DNA from: a candidate division WOR-3 bacterium
Lineage (GTDB): Bacteria > Hydrothermota > Tepidihabitantia > B3-TA06
DNA length: 64,000 nucleotides
Reading direction: 5' to 3'
Assembly (NCBI GenBank): GCA_965649265.1
Contig: CBFGKC010000001.1
Location: forward strand, 45,119-109,118
A program made the translations under genes and the position numbers. Under the pieces are notes generated by a model that had not been told where the DNA came from, did no database searches, and worked only from the letters and a program-made list of their open reading frames with translations. This document shows positions 17,435 through 31,142 of the stretch, piece by piece (the stretch's first letter is position 1; every line of letters starts with the position of its first letter).

Positions 17435-17506
17435 AGCCGACGAGTGGATTCGAACCACCGACCTACGCTTTACGAAAGCGTTGCTCTACCACTGAGCTAC
17501 GTCGGC
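17435..17506 (-). tRNA. tRNA-Thr(CGT), intact copy at the left att junction
   Basis: GCCGACGTAGCTCAGTGGTAGAGCAACGCTTTCGTAAAGCGTAGGTCGGTGGTTCGAATCCACTCGTCGGCT folds as a cloverleaf with anticodon CGT; CCA is not encoded. Confidence 0.95.
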
Positions 17507-17519
17507 AAATTTCATAATT

Positions 17520-18563
17520 TCATAGCTTGTTAGATTCAAAGACAGTTGAATTCTCTTGTTGTGCCATATTTGTGCCAACTTTATTTACCGCGTCAAGAAG
17601 GTGAGGGCGTGAGAGGTGAGAATAGCGAAGAGTCATCTTGATGTCCTTGTGGCCCAATAATTCCTGAACCGTGCGAATGTCAACGCCCGCCATCACGAGA
17701 TACGAGGCAAAGGTATGTCTCAGGTCGTGAAAGCGAAAATCAACGACTCCAGCACGGTTACAAGCGGTTTCAAAGGCTTTTCTCCAGTTGCCGTAGGGTC
17801 TGCCGTCAGGCTTGCGAAAGACGGTCTGCCCTTTGCGTTCTATGTTCAGCCTTTCGAGCACGGGGAGAAGCTTGTCGCTTATCGGAATCATCCTTTGTTC
17901 GTTATTCTTGGTTCGCATAAGCAGAATAGATCGTCTTTCAAAGTTGATGTCTTTCCATGTAAGCCCCATAAGCTCACCACGACGCATGCCTGTTTCAAGC
18001 GCAGCAAAGACTACCGCCCACAGCATCGGGTTTGCAGAGCACTCAAGAAGCAGCCTGTCTCGCTCCTCACACGAAAGAAACCTGGTAGGAGGGGGAGGGG
18101 TTCTAAGGCGTTTAATCTGACGTGCAGGATTAGCTTTGACGTAGTTCCAGTCAACGGCCTTGTTCATCATGTGTTTGATGGTTTCCATGTCGCGGTTTAC
18201 CGTGGCAGGTGCAACCTTCAGTGAACGTTGAGTCTGAAATTGCTCAATATCCCTTGTCGTTATTTCTGAAAGCTTCATATCGCCAAAGGCAGGTAGAATC
18301 TGATTGAGCGATGTTTCGTCTCTTTTGAATGAGGATATTTTTTTATGGGCTTTCGAGTATTCCAAGTATTCATCGGCATACGCCGCAAACGTTCGTGGTG
18401 CATCTGCCGGAATGCCTTGAGCCGTCTCGCTCTCGATGCGTCTTTGAATCTCTCCAAGTTTTGAAAGAGCAACCCGCTTGGTCCGTCCTGCGACCTTGCG
18501 GTACCTTTTCCCGCTATATGAGAAGTCGACATACCAGCGTTTATCACGCTCGTATATTCTCAT
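17520..18563 (-). CDS. Tyrosine recombinase / phage integrase
   Basis: Arm-binding N-terminus (WYVDFSYSGKRYR); catalytic motifs TGMRRGE, TKN, HDLRH, LLGH and RYSH. Confidence 0.95.
   Translation of the reverse strand: MRIYERDKRWYVDFSYSGKRYRKVAGRTKRVALSKLGEIQRRIESETAQGIPADAPRTFAAYADEYLEYSKAHKKISSFKRDETSLNQILPAFGDMKLSEITTRDIEQFQTQRSLKVAPATVNRDMETIKHMMNKAVDWNYVKANPARQIKRLRTPPPPTRFLSCEERDRLLLECSANPMLWAVVFAALETGMRRGELMGLTWKDINFERRSILLMRTKNNEQRMIPISDKLLPVLERLNIERKGQTVFRKPDGRPYGNWRKAFETACNRAGVVDFRFHDLRHTFASYLVMAGVDIRTVQELLGHKDIKMTLRYSHLSRPHLLDAVNKVGTNMAQQENSTVFESNKL
17560..17580. promoter_or_regulatory. Putative integrase arm-type sites (paired TGTGCCA, 11-bp period); second pair at 30934-30954
   Basis: TGTGCCAtattTGTGCCAACT inside the left end and TGTGCCAatttTGTGCCAACT inside the right end, in the same orientation. 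Confidence 0.65.
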
Positions 18564-18827: not shown

Positions 18828-19286
18828 TTAATCTTGTCCGTCTTGTGTTATATTTTTAGGCATTGAAATAATCGGGAAATAATCATCCGTGATAGATTTA
18901 GAGACATATATTGCAGCACCTTCATTTGAAACAATCGGGCCAACGTCCATTGATTTTTCCGTGCACCATCCTTTCAAGGCTTTTTTCCAAAGTTTCTTGT
19001 AGACTTCAGGCGTAAGATTGGGGTTCTTTTCCTGAAGCAAGTGGATATGCGGTCTTCCGTGTTTTGCTTCAATAACCATTATGGTTGTAAGCTCCTTTCC
19101 GTGCTCCCTGTATCTTCTGCCAAAGGCCGCTTCATTAGTCAAACGTCTGAATCTCAAAGCCTTTCCACGTGCAGAATTGAAGCTGTGCGGTTTTGGAAAG
19201 TTAAACGTTCCAAAAGTATGCAGTCGGTTCGAAAGAGCTATGAACCATTTTGCATACTCCCTTTTCATATCGAAGATCTTTTTCAT
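18828..19286 (-). CDS. Small HUH-endonuclease / rolling-circle Rep-like protein
   Basis: Motif I FGTFNF, motif II HIHLL and motif III YVSK in the expected order; only 152 aa. Confidence 0.65.
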   Translation of the reverse strand: MKKIFDMKREYAKWFIALSNRLHTFGTFNFPKPHSFNSARGKALRFRRLTNEAAFGRRYREHGKELTTIMVIEAKHGRPHIHLLQEKNPNLTPEVYKKLWKKALKGWCTEKSMDVGPIVSNEGAAIYVSKSITDDYFPIISMPKNITQDGQD

Positions 19287-20295: not shown

Positions 20296-21222
20296 TTAGG
20301 GTACTGTTACTTGAGTTGAAGCCGAATCCACACCAGTAAGGCTTTTTACAATTACACTCACGCTGTAGGTTCCGCTCTCGGGATAACGCACAATAACACT
20401 AGTATCACCGCTAGTTTTCAGTAATGTAGCATCTGGGTATTGCCATTGACATTCAGGTTCGTCTTCTTCAATTCCTTCGTACCATGCCCACAAAGCAATA
20501 TCTCGGTTCGTAACACTTATGTAATTAGGTTTAATTAACGTATCAGCACCGTCAGCATTTGATACAATCAGAGTAACCGTGTACTGCCCCTCAGTCGAAT
20601 ATATATGGGTTGGGTGGTGAGCCGTTGATGTCTCCATGTCACCAAAGTCCCAAAACCAAATATCAGGACTTCCATTTGAAAGATCAGTAAACATGACGTG
20701 CAAGGGAGCCGAGCCGGATGTTGGTGTTGCTGAGAATTCTGCTTGAGGCTTTACAGGTGTCAGGAAAGCATTGAATGACCTTGCATTTGTTTTTCTTAAG
20801 CTTTGTTCAGGGCTGTATACAGACCATTTTATCTCTAAGTTCATAATACCGTTACTGGAACCTCCACACCAGATCGTATCAGAATACAACGCAGGCTTAT
20901 CATTAATACTGACGATCACCCAGAAGTGTCCAGCTAGTTTTACAGAATCACTTTGTTCTTTGTAGATTGTTGAGGTATATGTACTGTCTCCGTTAATATC
21001 AATAGGTTGAGTATCAAGTAATTTTTCCTCACCGAATGCACTACGATACCAATCAATCTGAATAGGTCCCTCTCCTGATGCAATAATTTCAGCGACAAGA
21101 GAATCTTGCGGTGTCTTTATTGGATCGCCAAGACTGACATTTTTAACTTCGGCTTTCTTGAATAGCTGACAACCCAGACTAAGAACAATAAAGCTTATCG
21201 CAAAGGTAAAGACCTTTTTCAC
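20296..21222 (-). CDS. PKD-domain lipoprotein
   Basis: Lipobox SLGC; PKD signature AEFSATPTSGSAPLHVMFTDLS...WFWDFGD...HIYSTEGQYTVTL. Confidence 0.85.
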   Translation of the reverse strand: MKKVFTFAISFIVLSLGCQLFKKAEVKNVSLGDPIKTPQDSLVAEIIASGEGPIQIDWYRSAFGEEKLLDTQPIDINGDSTYTSTIYKEQSDSVKLAGHFWVIVSINDKPALYSDTIWCGGSSNGIMNLEIKWSVYSPEQSLRKTNARSFNAFLTPVKPQAEFSATPTSGSAPLHVMFTDLSNGSPDIWFWDFGDMETSTAHHPTHIYSTEGQYTVTLIVSNADGADTLIKPNYISVTNRDIALWAWYEGIEEDEPECQWQYPDATLLKTSGDTSVIVRYPESGTYSVSVIVKSLTGVDSASTQVTVP

Positions 21223-21834
21223 GTCTCCTCCTAATCTTTTGTTTACTTGATACTAAACCTTTATTTCGAGTTGTCAAGCCTGCTAATAGCCAACATTGAC
21301 TTGACCAATCCTTTTACTTTTCTTACCGTGCTGCGAAGAATACCTAGAAGAATTGTAGAATTTGTGGCAGGCAAGCTGCCTAAAGAAAAGAAGAGCGGCC
21401 GCAAGTGGTAGGCTTTTCGCTGACGCTCAAGCACAGCCGCCCGCTACCGCCTTACGCTCCGTCTACGCTTCGCTACGGCGGCCATCCCCACCCTGCCACC
21501 CTTATTGTATAGGCAGCTCTCCCTGGGCTGTCCTCGGGCTCGCAGAAAGCCTCGCCCGCAAGGGTGCTGCCAACGTCATCACTCACTGCCCCCGCAACCC
21601 TCCCATTCAACGTCTACCCACTAACCTCACACCAACCAACCAAGACTCAGGGTTTTGTCTCTAAAACCCTTTGACCATTGCCGCCAAAACTCCTGAAGAT
21701 GCGGGCGTCGGCTCCTCGAACTGCGTCGCCCTGCGGCAGCCACACGGCGAGCGTGTAGGGCGTTGTGGCGAGTGAGGGGTATACTACGGGTAAGGGGTTG
21801 ACAAACCTTATATTTCGAGATATATTATATTCTT

Positions 21835-24198
21835 ATGGAGGGTATTTTTCAAAAGCCCATAGTTTTATTTTTACTTTGCCTTACGACTCTTAATGCAGAG
21901 ACTCAAGATAAATGGTCCGTGGTCTACCCAGACAGTGTTTCATCTAAAAGGATAGTTTCGTTGTACAGGTCAGGATCTACGATTTTCGTTGGCACTAGCC
22001 AAGGTATTGATTTGTTTGAAAAAGAAAAACCCTTTGAGTACTCCCCTCCGTTTATTTCAAAACTTGGTGAGGTAGTGGCCATAACTAAAGATATGAACGA
22101 TCGTCTATGGTGTATTATTGCAGGGAGACTTTACGTTAATTTTTCAGACAAATGGATTAGGTGCACTTTAATTGGACTTGATTCTTTGGGAGAAGTCAAA
22201 TCATTTGCTGTAGGTCCGAGAGATTTGACAATTGGTACAAACAGAGGGTCAATATATTCGTTAAACGTAAAAGCCCCAATTAAACTTGATACCCTTGAAG
22301 TAATTGGCACATTATTGCTTGATTCTCTTCTAACGAGTGGTGATTCTTTGGTTCTTGATTCTCTATTAGAAAATGCACTGACAGTAGAAGTGCATGAATT
22401 ACCTCTTACGTGGAAAACCGATGTCATTTCTGACATTCAGTATTGGCGTGGAGGGTTTTATTTTCTCGCTACACCAAAAGGGTTCTTATTATTTAACAGT
22501 GAAAAACCTGGTCAAAAACCTAAAGAAATCGGCAGAGAAGTTACGGCTGATTTGCAGATAGGTATATGCGCAGCTAAAGAGTCGGATTCTTCGATATGGT
22601 TAGCAGGTACTGGTTGTGTTGGTCGAATCAATCCTTTAGAACCCAAACAAAAACCTGAAATCCTCGAAATTCCAAGCGTAAAAGCTATAACAATAGATTC
22701 ATCTAGTCATAGATGGTTGATATGTTCAGAGGCTTTATTTGAGGTGTATCCTGAAACTTTGGTTTTCTTAAAACATTCTCTTCCAGAAAATTTAATGGAA
22801 TGGAAACTCAATACCGTCCTACCTCTATCCGGCGATAGCATCCTATTAGGGACAGATAAGGGTATACTTTTATTTCAGCCTGCAAGACCTCAACTTTCAC
22901 TAGAGAATATCAAGATTGAACCAAAAAGGGATTCAAAAGACAATGTGATATTGAATTTTGAGATCATCAACGCGGATGCTTATCCATACATAGAATGTCA
23001 ATGGTTTGGCGAAGGAATTACCAGATCTGACATAACGCTTAAACCCTTGAAAACACAACGAATAAATTTGGGAAACTTAGAACCTGGGAAAAATCAGATA
23101 ACGATCTTGATTCGAAGGCCTTTCGACAATGAAAAACCTACAGAAGATTCATTATCTGTATTGGTTCCAAGACGTCATCATAAAACACCTCCTTCATTAT
23201 GGGTAATTCTAATCTTAGTATTCACGATAGTCATACTTTCTTTTGTTATTTTTTTTGTATACCAGAAAAAGAAAAGAGAGGTTAAGGAACTACGTCACGC
23301 TAAATCTCTTCTCCGGGGGAATCCCTATATAGCCGGGGCTCCCATAAGAGATGCCAAAAATTTCTTCGGGCGGAAACAAATCCTAGAAGAGGTACTGGCA
23401 GGAATTCATAGTAATAGTTTTCTGATACATGGAGAAAGACGGATAGGTAAAACAAGCTTACTTTACCAAATCAGGAATCGTATCAGAGCATCTGCAGACG
23501 ATGAATATGAGATAATTCCCGTTATGGTTAGCTTAGAGAAATTTGAATCGGAAATCAAATCAAGTAAAACCCATAAGCCGTATTTACGATTATCCACGAG
23601 GTTCTATACTAACCTCGCTCATGTCATCGCTCCTAAAGTCTATAAGAAAAAAGAATACTCCAAGATGCTAAAGAGAACCTATCCTTACAGTAAATTTGAG
23701 GAATTTAGCGAATCTCTATTCAAATATCTACAGGATAAACATAAAGGAAAGACAGTTAGGGTCATTCTTCTAATAGATGAAGGCGATGAGATGAACAATT
23801 ATGGTTCGGATTTCCACAAGCAATTCCGCGGTTTGTTCCAAAGTTCTTACGCAGAAGTTTTTAACATTGTCCTAACTCTGAAGGAATTCAGTCCAGAGTG
23901 GCGACATGTAACAAGTCCTTGGTATAATTTCTTCAATGCAATTCCCTTGCCTCACATGACCGAAGAAGAAACATACATCCTTATCCAGGAATATGTTCAA
24001 GGTGGAGTGAAGTATAGACGCAAGGCTTTGAATCTTATATGGGAAATAACACATGGTCATCCGTATGAAATCCAACGCTTGTGTTCAAAAATTTTCAACT
24101 TACTTGGTGATAAAGTCTACGTCAACAGAAAAGATGTTGTCCATGCCGCAAATGAATTATATAACAAGCATGGAGCACTTGATGAGAAATCCATATAA
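21835..24198 (+). CDS. Signal peptide + beta-propeller/Ig ectodomain + TM + cytoplasmic STAND-class P-loop ATPase
   Basis: Reg_prop-like blades (IFVGTSQGI, LTIGTNRG, ILLGTDKGI); TM LWVILILVFTIVILSFVIFFVY then KKKR; NPY..G.P..FFGR; Walker A GERRIGKTS; Walker B LLIDE; GHPY. Confidence 0.8.
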   Translation: MEGIFQKPIVLFLLCLTTLNAETQDKWSVVYPDSVSSKRIVSLYRSGSTIFVGTSQGIDLFEKEKPFEYSPPFISKLGEVVAITKDMNDRLWCIIAGRLYVNFSDKWIRCTLIGLDSLGEVKSFAVGPRDLTIGTNRGSIYSLNVKAPIKLDTLEVIGTLLLDSLLTSGDSLVLDSLLENALTVEVHELPLTWKTDVISDIQYWRGGFYFLATPKGFLLFNSEKPGQKPKEIGREVTADLQIGICAAKESDSSIWLAGTGCVGRINPLEPKQKPEILEIPSVKAITIDSSSHRWLICSEALFEVYPETLVFLKHSLPENLMEWKLNTVLPLSGDSILLGTDKGILLFQPARPQLSLENIKIEPKRDSKDNVILNFEIINADAYPYIECQWFGEGITRSDITLKPLKTQRINLGNLEPGKNQITILIRRPFDNEKPTEDSLSVLVPRRHHKTPPSLWVILILVFTIVILSFVIFFVYQKKKREVKELRHAKSLLRGNPYIAGAPIRDAKNFFGRKQILEEVLAGIHSNSFLIHGERRIGKTSLLYQIRNRIRASADDEYEIIPVMVSLEKFESEIKSSKTHKPYLRLSTRFYTNLAHVIAPKVYKKKEYSKMLKRTYPYSKFEEFSESLFKYLQDKHKGKTVRVILLIDEGDEMNNYGSDFHKQFRGLFQSSYAEVFNIVLTLKEFSPEWRHVTSPWYNFFNAIPLPHMTEEETYILIQEYVQGGVKYRRKALNLIWEITHGHPYEIQRLCSKIFNLLGDKVYVNRKDVVHAANELYNKHGALDEKSI

Positions 24199-25681
24199 AT
24201 ATCTCAAACATGTCTCTGCGGATGATTTTTACAATAGGGATGAAGTCATTACTCAGGTATTAGATTCTAATAACAAAGAAAACATAGCTATAATTGGGAT
24301 TAGAAGAATAGGCAAGAGTTCAGTGTTGAGGCATATAGAACACCTTACTCGGAATGATCCAAAATATTCAGGTATCTATATACCAATCTACATTGATTTC
24401 GAAACCCTCTCGAAAAGTGCTGATGATGCAATTCAAAGAATCAAAAGTATAGCATTGAGAGAGCCATTACTGAATGACAGGTATGGGGCAAAGATTTCGC
24501 TTCGGGAGACTAGCTTGGAAAGTTTCTTTTTCAAAATCTCTAGAATCGCACAAAGTGAAAATAGAGACATCCTTTTTCTTTGTGATGAGGCTCAGCATAT
24601 TGAGGAAATGGATGAAAGCGCTAAAAGCATTTGCGATGCGATGAAGGTGGTATCTGAAGCTGAACCGAATTTCATCGTGGTTGTTGCATCATCTCCTCTT
24701 TTTCATAGAATACGACTTCTAATCCAATTAATTAGTTCTTCAGAGCAAATTGTTTCCTTGGGCAGGTTCGAAAACGGTTTTCCGATCGAGCTCGCTTCTT
24801 TATCCAAAAAGGGCAAACCTCCTCCTCTATCACAAAGAGTTATTAATAAGATTGTCAAGCTTTCAGGCGGTCATCCGTATTTCCTCCAAAAACTCGGAAG
24901 TAAGTGTTGGCCTGATTTCAATCTATCTCAGGAATTTTCTGAAACGCGGCTAAGTAAAAGTGAAAAGAGTATCACTAAGGTTATCTGGAATTTATTAAGG
25001 ATTAAGAAAGACTCTGAGATGAAGGAAAGTGGACGAATTATTCGTCTCTTCAGGTCAATTTTCTTAAACCTCCTAAGACATAAGAAAATAACTGAAGCTG
25101 CAAAGGAAATAAGCAAAGGGAGTATCGAATCGGATCAATTCCAGGATGATATTGAAAGTCTAAAGGATCACGAGAAGGAAATCTTACGTGCCCTTGCTGA
25201 ATGTAGATCAAAAGTAACATTGAGAAGACTCTCAACATTAACAAGAATTGAATTAAACCATGCCGAGTCATGCTTGTCCTGCCTTTCTGATTTAGGTCTA
25301 GTGACTAAAAATGGAAAGCGCTATGAAATAACGAATAAATTTTTCCAAGACTGGCTTTACTGTCGCCCTAGTGAAGATACTGTAAAACGATTGAGGCTAA
25401 ATTGTTTCATCGCATGGTTTTTATTTGGTATTTTAGTTCCCTTGCTCTCTGGTCTATTCGTAAGCAAAATAGTCCCTTTGGCTACCCCAATATTCGCCAT
25501 AAACCTTATTGCGACATGCCTTTTTTTAGCCTTAGCAATCGTAGGTTTCAGTTATCTCAACATTGTTCCCCAAAAGAGATGGAAATTAGCAAAAGATTTT
25601 TCAATGGGGTTCTTTTTTGCCTTCTTAACAACCTTATTGGCCCTATTGTATCAGATTTGTGGTCTATTTACTTCTCAATAG
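24182..25681 (+). CDS. STAND-class ATPase with wHTH-like region and three C-terminal TM helices
   Basis: MRNPY...FYNR; Walker A GIRRIGKSS; Walker B FLCDE; GGHPY; LSDLGLV wHTH-like segment; hydrophobic C-terminus; start overlaps the previous gene. Confidence 0.8.
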   Translation: MRNPYKYLKHVSADDFYNRDEVITQVLDSNNKENIAIIGIRRIGKSSVLRHIEHLTRNDPKYSGIYIPIYIDFETLSKSADDAIQRIKSIALREPLLNDRYGAKISLRETSLESFFFKISRIAQSENRDILFLCDEAQHIEEMDESAKSICDAMKVVSEAEPNFIVVVASSPLFHRIRLLIQLISSSEQIVSLGRFENGFPIELASLSKKGKPPPLSQRVINKIVKLSGGHPYFLQKLGSKCWPDFNLSQEFSETRLSKSEKSITKVIWNLLRIKKDSEMKESGRIIRLFRSIFLNLLRHKKITEAAKEISKGSIESDQFQDDIESLKDHEKEILRALAECRSKVTLRRLSTLTRIELNHAESCLSCLSDLGLVTKNGKRYEITNKFFQDWLYCRPSEDTVKRLRLNCFIAWFLFGILVPLLSGLFVSKIVPLATPIFAINLIATCLFLALAIVGFSYLNIVPQKRWKLAKDFSMGFFFAFLTTLLALLYQICGLFTSQ

Positions 25682-25874: not shown

Positions 25875-26129
25875 GTGAGAATCCCTTTAATTGAAAGTAA
25901 CACTAAGACAATCCACATCAAGAAAGAACAACATGAAGAGAGGTCCGAGAGAAAAGGCAAATACTACTGGTCAACTCATCCGGGCAGTAGACATGTCTAT
26001 CATACATGCCGAAAATGTACTGAAGGCAACAACATCGAAAAGAGTAATTTTGAATCAGGCAATAATCCTCCTTCAGATTATCGGAAGTGTGAGAAGTGTG
26101 ATTTGTTGAAAAAGGCAGGGCGTTGCTAA
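25875..26129 (+). CDS. Small Cys/His-rich hypothetical protein
   Basis: VYHTCRKCTEGNNIE...CEKC possible Zn site; GGAGG upstream; start uncertain. Confidence 0.45.
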   Translation: MRIPLIESNTKTIHIKKEQHEERSERKGKYYWSTHPGSRHVYHTCRKCTEGNNIEKSNFESGNNPPSDYRKCEKCDLLKKAGRC

Positions 26130-26203: not shown

Positions 26204-26238
26204 AAAAAGAGGCTCAGATTTATGCCTGAGCCTCTTTT
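26204..26238. terminator. Bidirectional intrinsic terminator
   Basis: AAAAAGAGGCTCAG-loop-CTGAGCCTCTTTT between convergent genes. Confidence 0.8.
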
Positions 26239-26259: not shown

Positions 26260-29200
26260 TTACCTCACGAGCACGACCTTTGAGGTTGCTACTTTGCCGT
26301 CCTTGGGTACTGCCCGTACGAAGTAGACGCCCTTGGCCCATCCGTCGCAGTCAACGGGTGTCTCAATCCTTGCAAGCTTCTGGACGCCCTTAAGCTCTTG
26401 ACGTACTACCTGACGGCCCGAAACGTCGTATACCGTTATCATGCAGTCGCCGCCCGTCGTGAAGATGCTCAGTTTTGAACCTACAAGGATGTTATCCGGT
26501 ATTGACATCTTGAATACTGAAGGCGGTATGAACACTACAGGCTTGCCGTCGCTCTCCTGGTTGCCGCCTGAGCCGTTGTAGATTGCCCACTTGGGGCCGG
26601 TGAACGTTCCATGCTGGTACAGTTCCGCCGCTCCTGAGCCGTACTTGGTTACGTGTGCAAAATAGCTCTTGCCGTCGTATGCTGCGTCGAACCTCGTTGT
26701 CGTCCCGCCTGGCAATGTGCGTTTGTAGACGTTTCCCGAATCGGCGGTTACGTAACAAGTCCAAGTAACCTCGTTACCCCCTACTTGCGGGTAACGGTTA
26801 CGGCCTGAAACATTCGAAACCTGAGTAGCCGTCGAGAAAAGGTTGTCATTCGAGCGGGGTTTAGAGACAACGTATACCTTGTCGTTCGCGTTGAAAACAG
26901 CCAAGACTTCGGTAGTGTTGCTTTCAATGTCAAGGAAGGGAACTAAGGGTTCGCCTAAAGTATCGCTCTTGCTTGAGGCAAATTTGTACGGGCCATTCCA
27001 ACCTGAAGAGTTCTTCATAAAGTAGTAACAAGCTGAGGTATCGCCTTTCCTGCATCCGTAGGCTATGTAAATCCTGTTATACTGACTGTCAACCTCTATT
27101 GATGCACCAAGTATGCGGGTATCCTCAGTAAAGTCGGTGTCAAGGATTTCTTCGGCAAGATTCTCAGGTTTGGTTTTGAAAAACCGAGCGTAACAAAGTT
27201 TATCCTGCCCATTATCACGTGTAATGTAGGCAAGGTGAACGGTTCCTGGACCGTCAGTACCGCTGCCGGGGGGAACGGTTCCATCTATTCCGCCAGGATT
27301 TACGGTGCTGCCGTATGTTCCGTAGCCGTAGTCTATGGCAACAGGGCCGGGTATGCCGGAAAGATCGAGGGTGTCAAGAGGATATTTCCATGTAGTGTCT
27401 GGCCTTGGTTGTAAAATTCCGGCCACAACCGCCGAATCTATCGTTTCTTCTCTGTAACTGTAAAGGACTTTCGAACAAGAAGTGTCGAAAAACACAGCCA
27501 TAGGAGAATTGTTATTGTCAAGAGCAAGAGCAGGCCAGATGCCATAACCGATGCTATCGTAGTACAATGGTTGTGGTCCGACCATTTCAGCTTTGAACCA
27601 TATAAGCGAAGGATCATAGGTTTTAGTGTAGTAAATATGGCCTTTCAACGGGTAGATGAAATGGAAGGTGTCGTCCGAGTCGCAGATAAACTTACGTTGA
27701 GTGGTTCTATCCATTGCCACCTCTTCATCCGTCCAGATGCGACTGCGCCTTATACAAAGCTGAATTACGCCGGGGCTGGAATAATGTATGCCTTCAAGGC
27801 TCACGTGCGTTGGTAGATTTTGGAGGTGAAATCTCTCTACACTATTATCAGGATAAGTAAAATTGTATGTGTAAGTATACGGTGTTCTGTTATTATAGCC
27901 ATCTGAAGAGGGATTCATCAACGTATGAAACGCGGTCTTGTAAGCAGGATTGAAAAAATCTGAGGAGTCGCACATAGAGGCTTTGTTATTACTTGCCCAC
28001 CATCGTGTTTGAGAGGAGTCTGACCACCATGACCAACGGTCTATTCGATCCCAGCCCGCTTCGGTACCGAATGGTGATGGGCCGTTGCCGTAAAGGTTCT
28101 TTAGTCCTTCGGCGCATTCAAGGTCTTCGTACTTCGCTAATTCGTTGTTCATGTTGTCTGAGCACCAGAACCGGTCGTTTACGTGCCATACAAGAAGGCC
28201 ATCAGCTCCAGGTTTTGCGCCAAGCTCAAGCTCCTCAGGGAAACAACGGCCAAGCTCATCAAGCCAGTGGTCATCAGGCTGGTAGTTGGCAATAAGAAAA
28301 TACTCACGGAGAAGATTAGGCCAGGTGCATTCAACAGGTGGGTATCTTGTTATGCTGTCCACAGGTATCAAATAAGCCCTTCGCGTTTCGTCTGTAGTAG
28401 CTAAATTGAAATCACCAAGCGTCACGTTCTGCGAGTTCGTGTTTATCTCCATTGGTTTGAACCAGCCCAAGACCATGCGCTCCCAAGGGGTGTAAAGCTG
28501 GGCGTGTTTTATCCAGCAACCTAATTGCATTGCTGTATACTTCCCTGCTCCTCCCGAGCCATGATACGTTCCATAGTCGTACCTGTCGGGCAAAGCGTGT
28601 TCATAATCACCGTTAGATTGTTTAAGTGGATAATTAACTGTTTGTGAATTAAAATAATGACCTAGCTCGTGCAAACATCCGGCGCAAGTAACAAGAAGAT
28701 TTATACGATCTCCTGGGTCAAGGTCGTAATACGACATCGCTGAACCAATATTGACACGCTGAGTTACTGTTACGTATTTCGTGGTATCCTTATCCCATTT
28801 GTCATTCGTCTCAAAATATTCTTTATCCCCACTGCAATTCCTTACAAAGCCTTGGTTTGACGAATCTCTGTGAAAAACACCTAGTGAATCCTTGAATCCA
28901 AACCGTGCCGCTGGATTAAGCGGATCGATAAAAAAAAGGAAGTCAACTAATTTATCGTCCGTGGTGTCATAGTCGTTGAAATCAACGTAAGGGTCTATGG
29001 CATTGATTATATCCTTTTCAAATGTAAAAAGACGATCAGTTTTACAGGTATCAAGATACCATTCAAATGAATGCGGTGCCGTAATATATCTGCCGCCCAT
29101 CCCTGGATTGACTTCCCCAATCATCTTGAGGTTACCCCACGATGCGGTGTAAAGATAGTTTGAGATTGACCACTTATATTTGGGATTGTTAAGTAATTCC

Positions 29201-29430
29201 CAAGTGCATGGAGCAAGAAGGGAATCGTAAAATGGAGGATAATAAGTCGCAGTATCCTCAGGGAACTTTGAAATTAGTACGAGTACCTTTTGTGCCCCGG
29301 TATGTATTGAGCAATAAGAACTGGTATCTTGTCCTGGTTGTTGGTCAGGCTCCATCCACCATTCGTAGTTGGTTGCATGCAAAGACGAAAAGATGAGAAC
29401 GACGGCAAAAAACAGGGATTGTTTAATCAT
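26260..29430 (-). CDS. Secreted M6-like (immune inhibitor A-type) zinc metalloprotease with T9SS-type C-terminal domain
   Basis: Signal peptide; VDFNDYD; HELGH...LPDRYD; WERMVLGW; EYFLIAN; GLLVWHV; C-terminal VYDVSGR...GVYFVR...KVVLVR; GGAGGAG RBS before ATG 29430. Confidence 0.8.
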   Translation of the reverse strand: MIKQSLFFAVVLIFSSLHATNYEWWMEPDQQPGQDTSSYCSIHTGAQKVLVLISKFPEDTATYYPPFYDSLLAPCTWELLNNPKYKWSISNYLYTASWGNLKMIGEVNPGMGGRYITAPHSFEWYLDTCKTDRLFTFEKDIINAIDPYVDFNDYDTTDDKLVDFLFFIDPLNPAARFGFKDSLGVFHRDSSNQGFVRNCSGDKEYFETNDKWDKDTTKYVTVTQRVNIGSAMSYYDLDPGDRINLLVTCAGCLHELGHYFNSQTVNYPLKQSNGDYEHALPDRYDYGTYHGSGGAGKYTAMQLGCWIKHAQLYTPWERMVLGWFKPMEINTNSQNVTLGDFNLATTDETRRAYLIPVDSITRYPPVECTWPNLLREYFLIANYQPDDHWLDELGRCFPEELELGAKPGADGLLVWHVNDRFWCSDNMNNELAKYEDLECAEGLKNLYGNGPSPFGTEAGWDRIDRWSWWSDSSQTRWWASNNKASMCDSSDFFNPAYKTAFHTLMNPSSDGYNNRTPYTYTYNFTYPDNSVERFHLQNLPTHVSLEGIHYSSPGVIQLCIRRSRIWTDEEVAMDRTTQRKFICDSDDTFHFIYPLKGHIYYTKTYDPSLIWFKAEMVGPQPLYYDSIGYGIWPALALDNNNSPMAVFFDTSCSKVLYSYREETIDSAVVAGILQPRPDTTWKYPLDTLDLSGIPGPVAIDYGYGTYGSTVNPGGIDGTVPPGSGTDGPGTVHLAYITRDNGQDKLCYARFFKTKPENLAEEILDTDFTEDTRILGASIEVDSQYNRIYIAYGCRKGDTSACYYFMKNSSGWNGPYKFASSKSDTLGEPLVPFLDIESNTTEVLAVFNANDKVYVVSKPRSNDNLFSTATQVSNVSGRNRYPQVGGNEVTWTCYVTADSGNVYKRTLPGGTTTRFDAAYDGKSYFAHVTKYGSGAAELYQHGTFTGPKWAIYNGSGGNQESDGKPVVFIPPSVFKMSIPDNILVGSKLSIFTTGGDCMITVYDVSGRQVVRQELKGVQKLARIETPVDCDGWAKGVYFVRAVPKDGKVATSKVVLVR

Positions 29431-29550
29431 CCACTCCTCCTTGAGAAAAGGTTGTTTATATTGGATGGATATTATGTAAAACTTAAAATTTGTCAAGAGG
29501 GTGAACTTTTTATGAGTTGACATGGAGCTTTCAAAGATTATACTTTTGTG

Positions 29551-30852
29551 ATGAGTCGTCTTTTTTGGTTTTCGCTTTGTGTGATGTTTACGAGCATTAA
29601 AGCTGATGGATGGATTCGAACTTATGGTCAGGGGTATGGCGACGGAGGTTATGCTGTAACCTGCTCGAACGACGGAGGATTCGTAATCGGGGGGCAGCAG
29701 GATTCCACTGGTGAATATTGCAATCTCTGGCTTATAAAAGCTGATTCTATGGGCGACACCTTATGGACGAGGATTTTTGACAGCGGTGGTGAAGATAGAG
29801 CCAGTTGCGTAATACAAACCAAAGAAGGAGACTACGTTGTAACCGGACACCTCGGGGTTGAGCCTTGCTTGATAAGAGTAAAACCCTACGGCGATACCGC
29901 ATGGATACATACTTATGGTTACGGCGGAGCCAACTGGGTAGAGCAAACCTCAGACGGAGGGTTTATCTTGACGGGCAGGATTGAAGACGCTTACCTTTGG
30001 ATTTTGAAAACCGATAACAACGGTGATACGTTGTGGAGCAAGTGGTATCAGTGGGGTACTTTCTCTGAAAACGGCAATTGCATTCGACAGACATTCGACG
30101 GGGGCTATATAGTAGCAACGAACATGGGGTTGTTGAAAACGGATGACAAAGGTGACAGCGTATGGATGCAGCCCTGGATAAGCAAGTGTGTTGAGCAGAC
30201 AACGGATTCCGGCTACATTCTTGCAACACAACACAATGGAGATATATGGCTAATCAAGACTGACTGGAAGGGTGATACGCTCTGGACAAAGACGTATGGA
30301 GGTAAGAAAGGGGAAACCGCCTATGCTGTTCACCAAACTAAAGATGGCGGTTACATTATTATTGGTAATACTGAATCATTCATGGATACTATTTATTCTG
30401 ATGTTTGGCTTGTAAAAACCGATGTAAATGGCGATACTCTTTGGACAAGAGCGATTGGAGGCAGCCGTTTCGATGAAGTCTATTCAGGCCAACAGACGAT
30501 GGATGGAGGTTTTATAATGACTGGCTGGGGTGCTTCTTATGGAGGAGGTGTTCTTCTAATCAAAACCGACTCGCTTGGCTATGTGGGTGTTGAGGAACCA
30601 GTAACAAAACCTGCCCAAACTGCCTGGCAGGTGGTTTCAGCAATCGGCTCGACCGTAACCTTGAGATATACAAACCTGCCCAAGGGGTTCCACGCCCTTG
30701 TGTTCGACGCTTCGGGCCGAAGGGTTGACGAAATACAGGCTCAGGGAGAATCGGGAACAATCACCTGGGGTCAAGGGAAAAACCCAGGAGTATATTTCAT
30801 TAAGACTAATTCCCCAAATTCTTTGACTGAAAAGGTCGTGTTGCTAAAATAA
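29551..30852 (+). CDS. Secreted repeat (beta-propeller-like) protein with T9SS-type C-terminal domain
   Basis: Repeats of QTxDGGYI...WLxKTDxxGDTLW; C-terminal FDASGR...PGVYFI...KVVLLK. Confidence 0.8.
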   Translation: MSRLFWFSLCVMFTSIKADGWIRTYGQGYGDGGYAVTCSNDGGFVIGGQQDSTGEYCNLWLIKADSMGDTLWTRIFDSGGEDRASCVIQTKEGDYVVTGHLGVEPCLIRVKPYGDTAWIHTYGYGGANWVEQTSDGGFILTGRIEDAYLWILKTDNNGDTLWSKWYQWGTFSENGNCIRQTFDGGYIVATNMGLLKTDDKGDSVWMQPWISKCVEQTTDSGYILATQHNGDIWLIKTDWKGDTLWTKTYGGKKGETAYAVHQTKDGGYIIIGNTESFMDTIYSDVWLVKTDVNGDTLWTRAIGGSRFDEVYSGQQTMDGGFIMTGWGASYGGGVLLIKTDSLGYVGVEEPVTKPAQTAWQVVSAIGSTVTLRYTNLPKGFHALVFDASGRRVDEIQAQGESGTITWGQGKNPGVYFIKTNSPNSLTEKVVLLK

Positions 30853-31103: not shown

Positions 31104-31142
31104 TTACGAAAGCGTTGCTCTACCACTGAGCTACGTCGGCAA
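31104..31142 (-). repeat. Right att site: duplicated 5' half of tRNA-Thr
   Basis: Identical to 17470-17508; preceded on the - strand by TTGACA (31177-31172)-16-TAAAAT. Confidence 0.9.

Follow-up and report, generated by a model that had tools for sequence, protein, structure and literature searches.

What do two overlapping genes do that encode paralogous P-loop nucleoside triphosphatases (NTPases), one of them behind an apparent external sensor and the other ending in the membrane? The genes, here called gene 1 and gene 2, lie side by side on an integrative island of a candidate division WOR-3 bacterium, within a 64,000-nucleotide stretch of contig CBFGKC010000001.1 that is referred to below as the window. 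An earlier note on this DNA had proposed that the pair relays an extracytoplasmic signal to a membrane effector, possibly for defence. The reading that we favour, with confidence and doubt in about equal measure, is that the pair constitutes a two-protein transmembrane relay composed of a receptor NTPase and a transducer NTPase. This reading draws on the domain anatomy of the two proteins, the conserved and tight linkage of their genes, their paralogy, the occurrence of fused relatives, and the exchange of sensor and output domains across the family, all of which are observed.

Hydropathy analysis of gene 1 revealed a hydrophobic, signal-peptide-like N-terminus and a single strong transmembrane (TM) segment at residues 454–476, followed by a Lys/Arg-rich stretch; this arrangement indicates that the N-terminal 450 residues face outward. 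An AlphaFold2 (AF2) model based on an alignment of 60 sequences, with a mean predicted local distance difference test (pLDDT) score of 86.5, comprises a β-propeller (residues 26–348), a β-sandwich (residues 355–444), a long TM helix (residues 456–492) and an α/β NTPase with a helical lid (residues 514–777). Neither the AF2 model nor a Pfam scan revealed a domain beyond the helical lid. The best Foldseek matches of gene 1 were the periplasmic sensors of Bacteroides hybrid two-component systems (3ott, E 3.9e-17; 3v9f, E 8.7e-17; 4a2l, E 2.9e-16). Despite this fold match, the Pfam models Reg_prop and Y_Y_Y were not detected in the window's gene 1, and no HisKA/HATPase_c, receiver or AraC domain was found in it at E up to 1. 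The structural evidence therefore agrees with the earlier note, which had described a signal peptide, a propeller plus Ig-like ectodomain of the hybrid two-component sensor type, one TM helix and an NTPase with no further effector.

The AF2 model of gene 2 (76 sequences; pLDDT 77.8, predicted template-modelling score 0.74) contains an NTPase core, a helical domain, a winged helix (residues 333–387) and three TM helices. A second ATPase with a winged-helix-like region and three C-terminal TM helices is what had been described beforehand, and the Pfam scan, hydropathy and AF2 model all confirm it. The longest open reading frame (ORF) of gene 2 spans 24053..25681 on the + strand (542 residues). 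Its start is most likely at position 24182 rather than 24053, judging from a GGAG motif 6 nucleotides upstream, a public 499-residue protein record and the alignment of the orthologue in locus L092, which begins there. The overlap with gene 1 claimed for the pair thus exists, but its extent is most likely 17 nucleotides and not 146.

Both proteins keep their Walker A, Walker B and GxP motifs, as had been claimed. Residues K539/T540 and D648/E649 (Walker A/B) and the GxP residue P743 (GHPYEIQ) are invariant in 60/60 gene-1 relatives; similarly, K49/S51, D139/E140 and P236 (GGHPYFLQ) are invariant in 76/76 gene-2 relatives. The assignment of both ATPases to the STAND class, also proposed previously, holds in part. 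The class was reportedly defined by Leipe et al. in 2004, and of its features a helical domain with a GxP motif is present in gene 1 and gene 2, with helical lids in both AF2 models. A winged helix after the helical domain is found in gene 2 (residues 333–387; pLDDT 88–97; alignment with 2fna) and is absent from gene 1, where the chain ends after the lid, with a median of 22 residues after the NTPase match in 154 relatives.

Profile scores place the two NTPases close to, and below, existing family boundaries. Pfam ATPase_2 (PF01637) gave 26.2 bits for gene 1 and 32.8 bits for gene 2 against a gathering cut-off of 33.2, with 34.4 bits for the orthologue P0002, and a public protein collection tags both window proteins PF01637. 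The nSTAND1 model (PF20703) gave 21.4 and 13.8 bits, respectively, against a cut-off of 27.1 that is passed by relatives of the gene-1 type (L030, 45.8 bits) and of the gene-2 type (L056, 34.6 bits). The best Foldseek matches of gene 2 were 2qen (E 3.1e-9), 2qby_A (E 4.8e-8) and 2fna (E 3.3e-7), then CED-4, Apaf-1 and plant NLRs (E 5.9e-6 to 1.2e-4), and the gene-2 family profile matches 2fna at E 3.3e-7. The NTPases are therefore best placed on the boundary that separates the archaeal-ATPase/Orc1-Cdc6 group from STAND proteins such as CED-4 and Apaf-1. The name 'STAND' is fair on the Walker and GxP motifs and the winged helix of gene 2, but borderline because both proteins fall below the ATPase_2 and nSTAND1 cut-offs and gene 1 lacks a winged helix.

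The two NTPases resemble each other closely. Alignment of the gene-1 and gene-2 NTPase profiles with hhalign covered 237 columns at a probability of 99.8% (E 9.7e-30), and both NTPases contain the motifs NPY, Walker A, Walker B, TSPxxxxF and GxHPYxxQ. Judged by these profiles, they are specific paralogues of one another; no further paralogue of gene 1 or gene 2 was found in the bacterium's own genome. Prediction of a complex between the gene-1 cytoplasmic domain and gene 2 residues 1–400 scored 0.02 against a mark of 0.32, an outcome that amounts to 'no answer' and counts neither way.

A HMMER search with gene 1 retrieved 3652 cluster representatives with E values up to 1e-3, a number that fell to 162 at a limit of 1e-30. 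Five of the matches are near full-length orthologues with 33–53% identity, and most relatives align only over residues ~410–775, corresponding to the TM helix and NTPase, at the extreme C-terminus of proteins of 350–2300 residues. A word-indexed protein search with gene 1 found only gene 1 itself among 8000 scored candidates, and a search of this kind with the gene-2 alignment returned 27 proteins, not enough for a census. Public records name the relatives only 'AAA family ATPase' or 'two-component regulator propeller domain-containing protein'. Carriers include Chloroflexota, Acidobacteriota, Woeseiaceae and other Gammaproteobacteria, and Bacteroidota, with 1–2 copies per carrier genome; Sulfidibacter corallicola M133, which is culturable, has two pairs. 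The idea of a core housekeeping locus, prompted by conserved gene order among carriers, was rejected, as only 24/77 and 5/81 genomes of two carrier families hold the pair (15 first-look candidates scored per genome).

Conservation of the pair was examined by contig scans of the best 80 of 400 genome relatives and the best 80 of 418 metagenome relatives; as these loci are the best-scoring ones and include many kin, the fractions describe this sample rather than all relatives. A partner was defined as a second NTPase scoring better with gene 2 than with gene 1. Among the 80 genome loci, the partner lies directly downstream on the same strand in 59, within 2 kb downstream on the same strand in nine and elsewhere in five, with none in six and one not assessable. 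The respective counts for the 80 metagenome loci are 35 directly downstream on the same strand, one within 2 kb downstream, 15 elsewhere, 20 with none and nine not assessable. Combined, 94 of the 160 loci have a gene-2-type NTPase directly downstream, a further 10 within 2 kb and a further 20 elsewhere in the locus. Partners located elsewhere mostly reflect a fixed divergent arrangement, and in 13 of the 20 metagenome loci scored as having none, the contig starts within gene 1 and hence does not show the upstream region in which a divergently arranged partner would lie. In the genome loci, the partner's start often overlaps the upstream stop by 4 nucleotides.

The closest locus, L092, keeps the pair, with 40% identity for gene 1 and 28% for gene 2 (E 5e-55), C-terminal TM helices and a 4-nucleotide overlap. 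Furthermore, three of the 150 top relatives (P0046, P0085 and the partial protein P0017) have a gene-2-type NTPase after a gene-1-type NTPase within a single chain. Linkage, paralogy and fusions together support the earlier view of the two genes as one functional unit. Two of the fused proteins have ends of their own: P0046 is soluble and terminates in a TIR domain (3jrn, E 2e-4), and P0085 has a propeller ectodomain, a TM helix, both NTPases and a further C-terminal domain of ~220 residues.

Two departures from the usual pair were also noted. In seven loci (L048, L053, L078, L080, L116, L121 and L148; Anaerolineae/Caldilineales for those with a taxonomic label), gene-1 relatives lack a partner NTPase and are followed by a gene for an Rce1-like CAAX protease, which is possibly an alternative partner there. 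In the genomes G272, G327, G338, G341, G343 and G345, a second gene-2-like copy lies ~5–10 kb from the first. A single in-frame stop codon repeatedly interrupts this copy, which may represent a split gene, a pseudogene that has been conserved, or a site of recoding.

The sensor and output ends vary around the conserved NTPases. Among 10 gene-1 relatives scanned, four carry Reg_prop (three of these also Y_Y_Y), three carry TPR, one carries Response_reg and six GAF domains, and in two nothing was detected. In 135/154 gene-1 relatives, the 110 residues that precede the NTPase include a TM-like segment. Outputs were assigned in 87 complete partners: 27 have a C-terminal Ser/Thr kinase, 23 an N-terminal Trans_reg_C (OmpR-type) domain, three have TM helices only, and 34 have nothing added or an unrecognised C-terminus. 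Pfam scans of example partners bore out the kinase and Trans_reg_C assignments, as did matches in the PDB to PknB and StkP. Thirteen of the 23 Trans_reg_C partners also have 2–3 C-terminal TM helices, and the three TM-only partners have the same type of end as the window's gene 2. On a quick tree, the output type changes at least 11 times. Proteins P0163–P0178 (~1040 residues) combine a related NTPase with TPR and a periplasmic-binding-protein domain of the ANF-receptor type; the two with an organism name are cyanobacterial, and those that are named are called amino-acid transporter binding proteins. In appearance they are a further sensor variant within the broader family.

It is proposed that gene 1 would act as the receptor, with its propeller and Ig-like ectodomain directed outward, one TM helix, and a winged-helix-less NTPase inside. 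The ectodomain has the fold with which hybrid two-component sensors bind glycans, and binding of a ligand outside the cell would alter the nucleotide or oligomer state of the gene-1 NTPase. This NTPase would in turn assemble with, or release, the gene-2 NTPase through contacts between like domains. Gene 2 would act as the transducer, a sister NTPase with lid and winged helix that is held at the membrane by three TM helices and would deliver the output, represented in relatives by a fused Ser/Thr kinase or OmpR-type DNA-binding domain. In this scheme, the binding of the two proteins to each other, the course of the signal from gene 1 to gene 2, the ligand and the target are inferred. The window copy would most likely act through its winged helix, which, tethered to the membrane as in ToxR and CadC, would bind DNA or protein; its target would perhaps be the island's own secreted-protein genes.

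Somewhat more tentatively, the family could represent a widespread, unnamed class of transmembrane signalling systems, in which a sensor, extracytoplasmic or cytoplasmic, would be connected to its output by a couple of paralogous NTPases in the roles of histidine kinase and response regulator. It is with the same reserve that we suggest interchangeable parts for this class, namely Reg_prop/Y_Y_Y, TPR or REC and GAF sensors and Ser/Thr kinase, OmpR-type, membrane-anchor or TIR outputs.

Several observations weigh against the relay. Contact between the products of gene 1 and gene 2 is inferred only, the window copy has no recognisable output domain, and its TM-only end also resembles membrane-disrupting immune effectors. 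By DNA comparison, the pair is absent from a same-genus genome and four same-family genomes; at the protein level, distant soluble NTPase relatives (25–27% identity) occur in only 3/271 other genomes of the phylum. It is also an accessory, patchily distributed feature of the two carrier families counted above. On the quick tree, the window copy groups with L092 in a clade with long branches (SH-aLRT 99) that stands apart from the remaining 74 partners, which makes the transfer of function from the family to the window copy uncertain. Finally, the island that carries the pair here is mobile, the pair in L092 has two restriction genes as neighbours, and the fused relative P0046 terminates in TIR, a domain typical of immune effectors.

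Some of these points would fit an anti-phage or anti-competitor system, in which attack would be sensed at the surface, the NTPases would co-assemble, and the TM helices of gene 2 would depolarise or permeabilise the membrane. We regard this account as unlikely. It agrees with the many defence systems run by NTPases of this class, with the patchy, rare distribution and long branches, with the integrative island and the TIR-ended fusion, and with weak matches to the PADLOC families Avs1b, PDC-S01 and PDC-S27. Transmembrane STAND ATPases are mentioned as sensors of protease-effector defence modules in the accessible part of a 2025 preprint (10.1101/2025.11.14.688446). L092, the only other close locus fetched for the window copy, has beside the pair a type IIG restriction enzyme (PADLOC, 1017 bits) and a GmrSD-like HEC-05 gene (134 bits), although this context rests on a single locus.

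The searches for defence families speak against such a role in the family at large. PADLOC matches of the window proteins are confined to the P-loop region, the best reaching 23.5 bits over ~60 residues. No full-length Avs match was obtained: PADLOC Avs1b gave 16.5 bits over residues 614–744, NCBIfam Avs1b gave 12.9 bits against a cut-off of 1500, and no effector domain was seen. Across the 76 partners, no PADLOC family matches the conserved core; matches of 27 of them (PD-T4-6, mad6 and similar) arise from the kinase domain and are uninformative on the core. None of six island proteins matches PADLOC, and among 118 flanking genes sampled from 196 candidates, 20 PADLOC families were matched, none by more than three genes. 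No relatives were found on viral contigs or plasmids. The neighbourhood comparison thus upheld co-occurrence of the pair across family loci, but gave no clear signal of defence islands among the sampled genes, and the suggested role in immunity is unsupported for the family.

The same holds for the idea that the C-terminal TM helices act as a membrane effector. Family outputs are mostly kinase or DNA-binding domains, and the co-occurrence of TM helices with a DNA-binding domain in 13/87 partners argues for reading the helices as a membrane anchor. Both ideas are left open for the divergent subclade of the window copy, given the restriction enzyme and GmrSD-like genes adjoining the pair in L092 and the TIR-ended fused relative.

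The neighbours of the pair across the family are envelope-related rather than defensive. A FadL/TodX-type outer-membrane protein is encoded beside the pair in 58/160 loci, and other recurrent neighbours are a DUF5666/DUF2807 protein, OmpW, a beta-lactamase-fold protein, LysM proteins and the Rce1-like protease; in Chloroflexota loci they include DegT, GT2, GT4 and GFO-type genes for sugar-chain synthesis. Such surroundings, together with the envelope and secreted-protein genes on the window's own island, are compatible with a membrane-bound, ATP-driven machine, in which the NTPases would work as AAA+ assemblies do, remodelling or assembling proteins that are secreted or belong to the envelope, and the ectodomain would bind the substrate. 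A fold close to AAA+ initiators and loaders and the retention of hydrolysis residues in both subunits point the same way. A single TM helix is, however, the only connection between ectodomain and NTPase, and the kinase, OmpR-type, REC and GAF fusions are signalling domains rather than parts of a machine, and we consider this explanation distinctly improbable.

The genomic setting of the pair bears on one further explanation. Both genes are carried by a tRNA-targeted integrative island of 13.6 kb with a GC content of 0.426, against 0.541 and 0.526 in the flanks. The location in an integrative element and the AT-richness of the pair noted earlier are borne out by the tRNA-Thr gene, tyrosine integrase, 39-bp direct repeat and deviant GC content, and by values of 0.376 for gene 1 and 0.374 for gene 2 against 0.509 for the window. 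The pair could accordingly be an idle passenger, recently acquired and AT-rich (0.375 against 0.51) and not wired into host regulation; it is absent from relatives, and the island holds no recognisable partner genes for it. Set against this, both ORFs are intact with every family-invariant residue kept, and the retained overlap suggests coupled translation, making an idle passenger the least probable explanation and a very improbable one; a small remainder of the probability goes to none of the four readings. Coordinates of the pair and of the island are collected in Table 1.

Table 1. Features of the gene 1–gene 2 pair and of the surrounding island, in window coordinates.
Feature	Position	Strand	Evidence
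tRNA-Thr (CGT), integration target; 5' half in direct repeat	17435..17506	-	ARAGORN; Rfam 73.4 bits
Left 39-bp direct repeat (attachment site, att)	17470..17508	.	Exact repeat, alignment
Tyrosine integrase of the island	17520..18563	-	Pfam Phage_integrase E 3.6e-35; phrog_1 integrase E 7.4e-85
Possible replication-initiator-like protein, weak	18828..19286	-	REP_ORF2-G2P 22 bits (cut-off 27.8); phrog_3584 E 3e-5
PKD-domain protein, hydrophobic N-terminus, divergent from gene 1	20296..21222	-	PKD_4 E 1.1e-22
Sigma-70-like hexamer pair TTGACA-17-TATATT, ending 8 nucleotides before ATG	21798..21826	+	11/12 consensus matches; consensus match only
Gene 1, receptor NTPase (putative role), 787 residues	21835..24198	+	Signal peptide, propeller, Ig-like domain, TM helix, NTPase with helical lid
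Gene 1 ectodomain: beta-propeller (26-348) and Ig-like sandwich (355-444)	21910..23166	+	AF2, pLDDT mostly >85; Foldseek 3ott/3v9f/4a2l, E ~1e-16
Gene 1 TM helix, residues 454-476	23194..23262	+	Hydropathy 3.4; AF2 helix 456-492
Gene 1 cytoplasmic NTPase: NPY, Walker A GERRIGKTS, Walker B LLIDEGD, TSPWYNFF, GHPYEIQ; without winged helix after it	23320..24165	+	
Gene 2, transducer NTPase (putative role), 499 residues from 24182 (alternative starts 24170, 24053)	24182..25681	+	
Gene 2 NTPase and helical domain (Walker A GIRRIGKSS, Walker B LFLCDEAQ, GGHPYFLQ)	24182..25159	+	
Gene 2 winged helix	25166..25330	+	HTH_IclR E 1.1e-3; AF2 pLDDT 88-97; profile match to 2fna across NTPase and winged helix
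Gene 2 three C-terminal TM helices, short loops	25373..25675	+	Hydropathy; AF2 helices 402-433, 440-463, 468-502
Cargo, 1087 residues, weak type IX secretion C-terminal sorting domain, HELGH motif (HExxH)	26260..29523	-	Por_Secre_tail 21 bits (cut-off 27)
Cargo, 434 residues, resembling beta-propeller repeat proteins	29548..30852	+	phrog_8401 E 3.6e-7
Right 39-bp direct repeat (att)	31104..31142	.	Exact repeat, alignment

The island has some features of its own. Whereas such repeats usually comprise the 3' end of a tRNA, the one here spans the 5' half of tRNA-Thr, and the integrase adjoins the intact tRNA. In the same-genus genome G100, a 95% identical tRNA–integrase stretch on a short separate contig suggests that a sister island with other cargo is probably present there. 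The genome contains 86 Por_Secre_tail matches, which indicates that the organism relies heavily on type IX secretion. Directly 3' of gene 2 lies a small ORF of 84 residues (25875–26129) with an AAGGAGG-like site before its GTG start; its paired Cys motifs CRKC and CEKC suggest a zinc ribbon, with no family match, and it is followed by a strong hairpin terminator at 26205–26238.

Between the PKD gene and gene 1 (21252–21820) lies a GC-rich, apparently non-coding segment of ~530 bp. It is bracketed by imperfect direct repeats of ~20 nucleotides with the core CTCGAAATA[T]AAGG on the minus strand (21258–21270 and 21806–21819), a core matched twice against 0.01 matches expected. The segment is unique in the genome, and parts of it are ~75% identical to a contig of a same-family genome. 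In the spacer 21340–21800, no Rfam match was found at gathering level or of weight (E up to 1), and fold z-scores of +0.51 and +1.11 gave no sign of structure. The two hexamers of the promoter-like site of gene 1 are separated by the right repeat. This site had been put forward as the pair's own promoter; the hexamers are indeed present at 21798, but such sites are no more frequent in the region than in shuffled sequence (13 against 11.9 +/- 4.3), and the match is therefore not evidence for a promoter.

The routes commonly recognised for transmembrane signalling in bacteria are histidine kinases, chemoreceptors, Ser/Thr kinases, anti-sigma factors and ToxR-like proteins, and the proposed relay, if true, adds another. 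Its parts are known: the fold of hybrid two-component sensors, a PF01637/Orc-like/STAND-like NTPase, and OmpR-type and kinase outputs. The coupling of a winged-helix-less receptor NTPase to a paralogous transducer NTPase appears to be a new arrangement. No description of the gene-1/gene-2 pair was found in the literature, in a search that did not cover supplementary architecture tables (e.g. PMC7159879), which might list the family. In the accessible parts of the sources, the closest mentions are of STAND sensors in conflict systems (PMC10907252, 10.1101/2025.11.14.688446, PMC7159879).

The pair is common, with 400 relatives in one-per-species genomes in addition to the cluster representatives counted above (3652 at E up to 1e-3). 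If the relay is real, ectodomains of the Bacteroides glycan-sensor type would be linked to kinase and DNA-binding outputs via an ATP switch of the Orc/STAND type, and one chassis would have been turned to regulation or, with TIR, to immunity. Since some carriers can be cultured and the output domains of the family are clear, the idea is directly testable.

Comparison with known systems places the pair between several of them. In the Bacteroides hybrid two-component sensors (BT4663, BT3049 and BT4673; 4a2l, 3v9f and 3ott), as in the fold of gene 1, a Reg_prop-type propeller and a Y_Y_Y Ig-like domain precede a TM helix, and relatives of gene 1 carry Pfam Reg_prop and Y_Y_Y outright. Those sensors have two propellers, whereas gene 1 has one, and they continue into histidine kinase, receiver and AraC domains rather than a P-loop NTPase. 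Gene 2 shares its layout of NTPase, lid and winged helix with the archaeal ATPases of PF01637 (SSO1545, 2fna; PABY2304, 2qen) and with Orc1/Cdc6. These proteins are soluble and act alone or at replication origins, in contrast with the membrane-associated couple of putative receptor and partner, with its sensor and output domains, described here.

Avs proteins, bacterial NLR-like proteins and the Pepco 'transmembrane STAND ATPase' sensors, the last as described in the accessible part of their report (10.1101/2025.11.14.688446), belong to the same broad class and similarly join a sensor to an oligomerising NTPase. The pair differs from them in having no nuclease, protease or other effector domain, and its Avs1b match of 16.5 bits extends over only 130 residues. 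MalT and the AfsR/SARP-type STAND regulators are single soluble chains in which cytoplasmic sensor repeats and an NTPase switch are coupled to a DNA-binding output. Correspondingly, 23/87 partners carry Trans_reg_C, the AfsR-type DNA-binding domain; here, however, sensing and output would be split over two paralogous NTPases, and the sensor would be extracellular.

ToxR and CadC are membrane-bound DNA-binding regulators, and the 13/87 partners that combine an OmpR-type domain with C-terminal TM helices indicate that membrane-tethered DNA binders occur in this family too. In these partners an NTPase and a winged helix stand between the DNA-binding domain and the TM helices, and the window's gene 2 lacks the OmpR-type domain. 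In the sensor/helper NLR pairs of plants, two paralogous NTPases are encoded side by side, one of which senses and the other executes. The plant pairs have no sequence relation to gene 1 and gene 2 beyond the NTPase class, and the bacterial family differs from them in an extracytoplasmic sensor and in helper outputs that are mostly regulatory.

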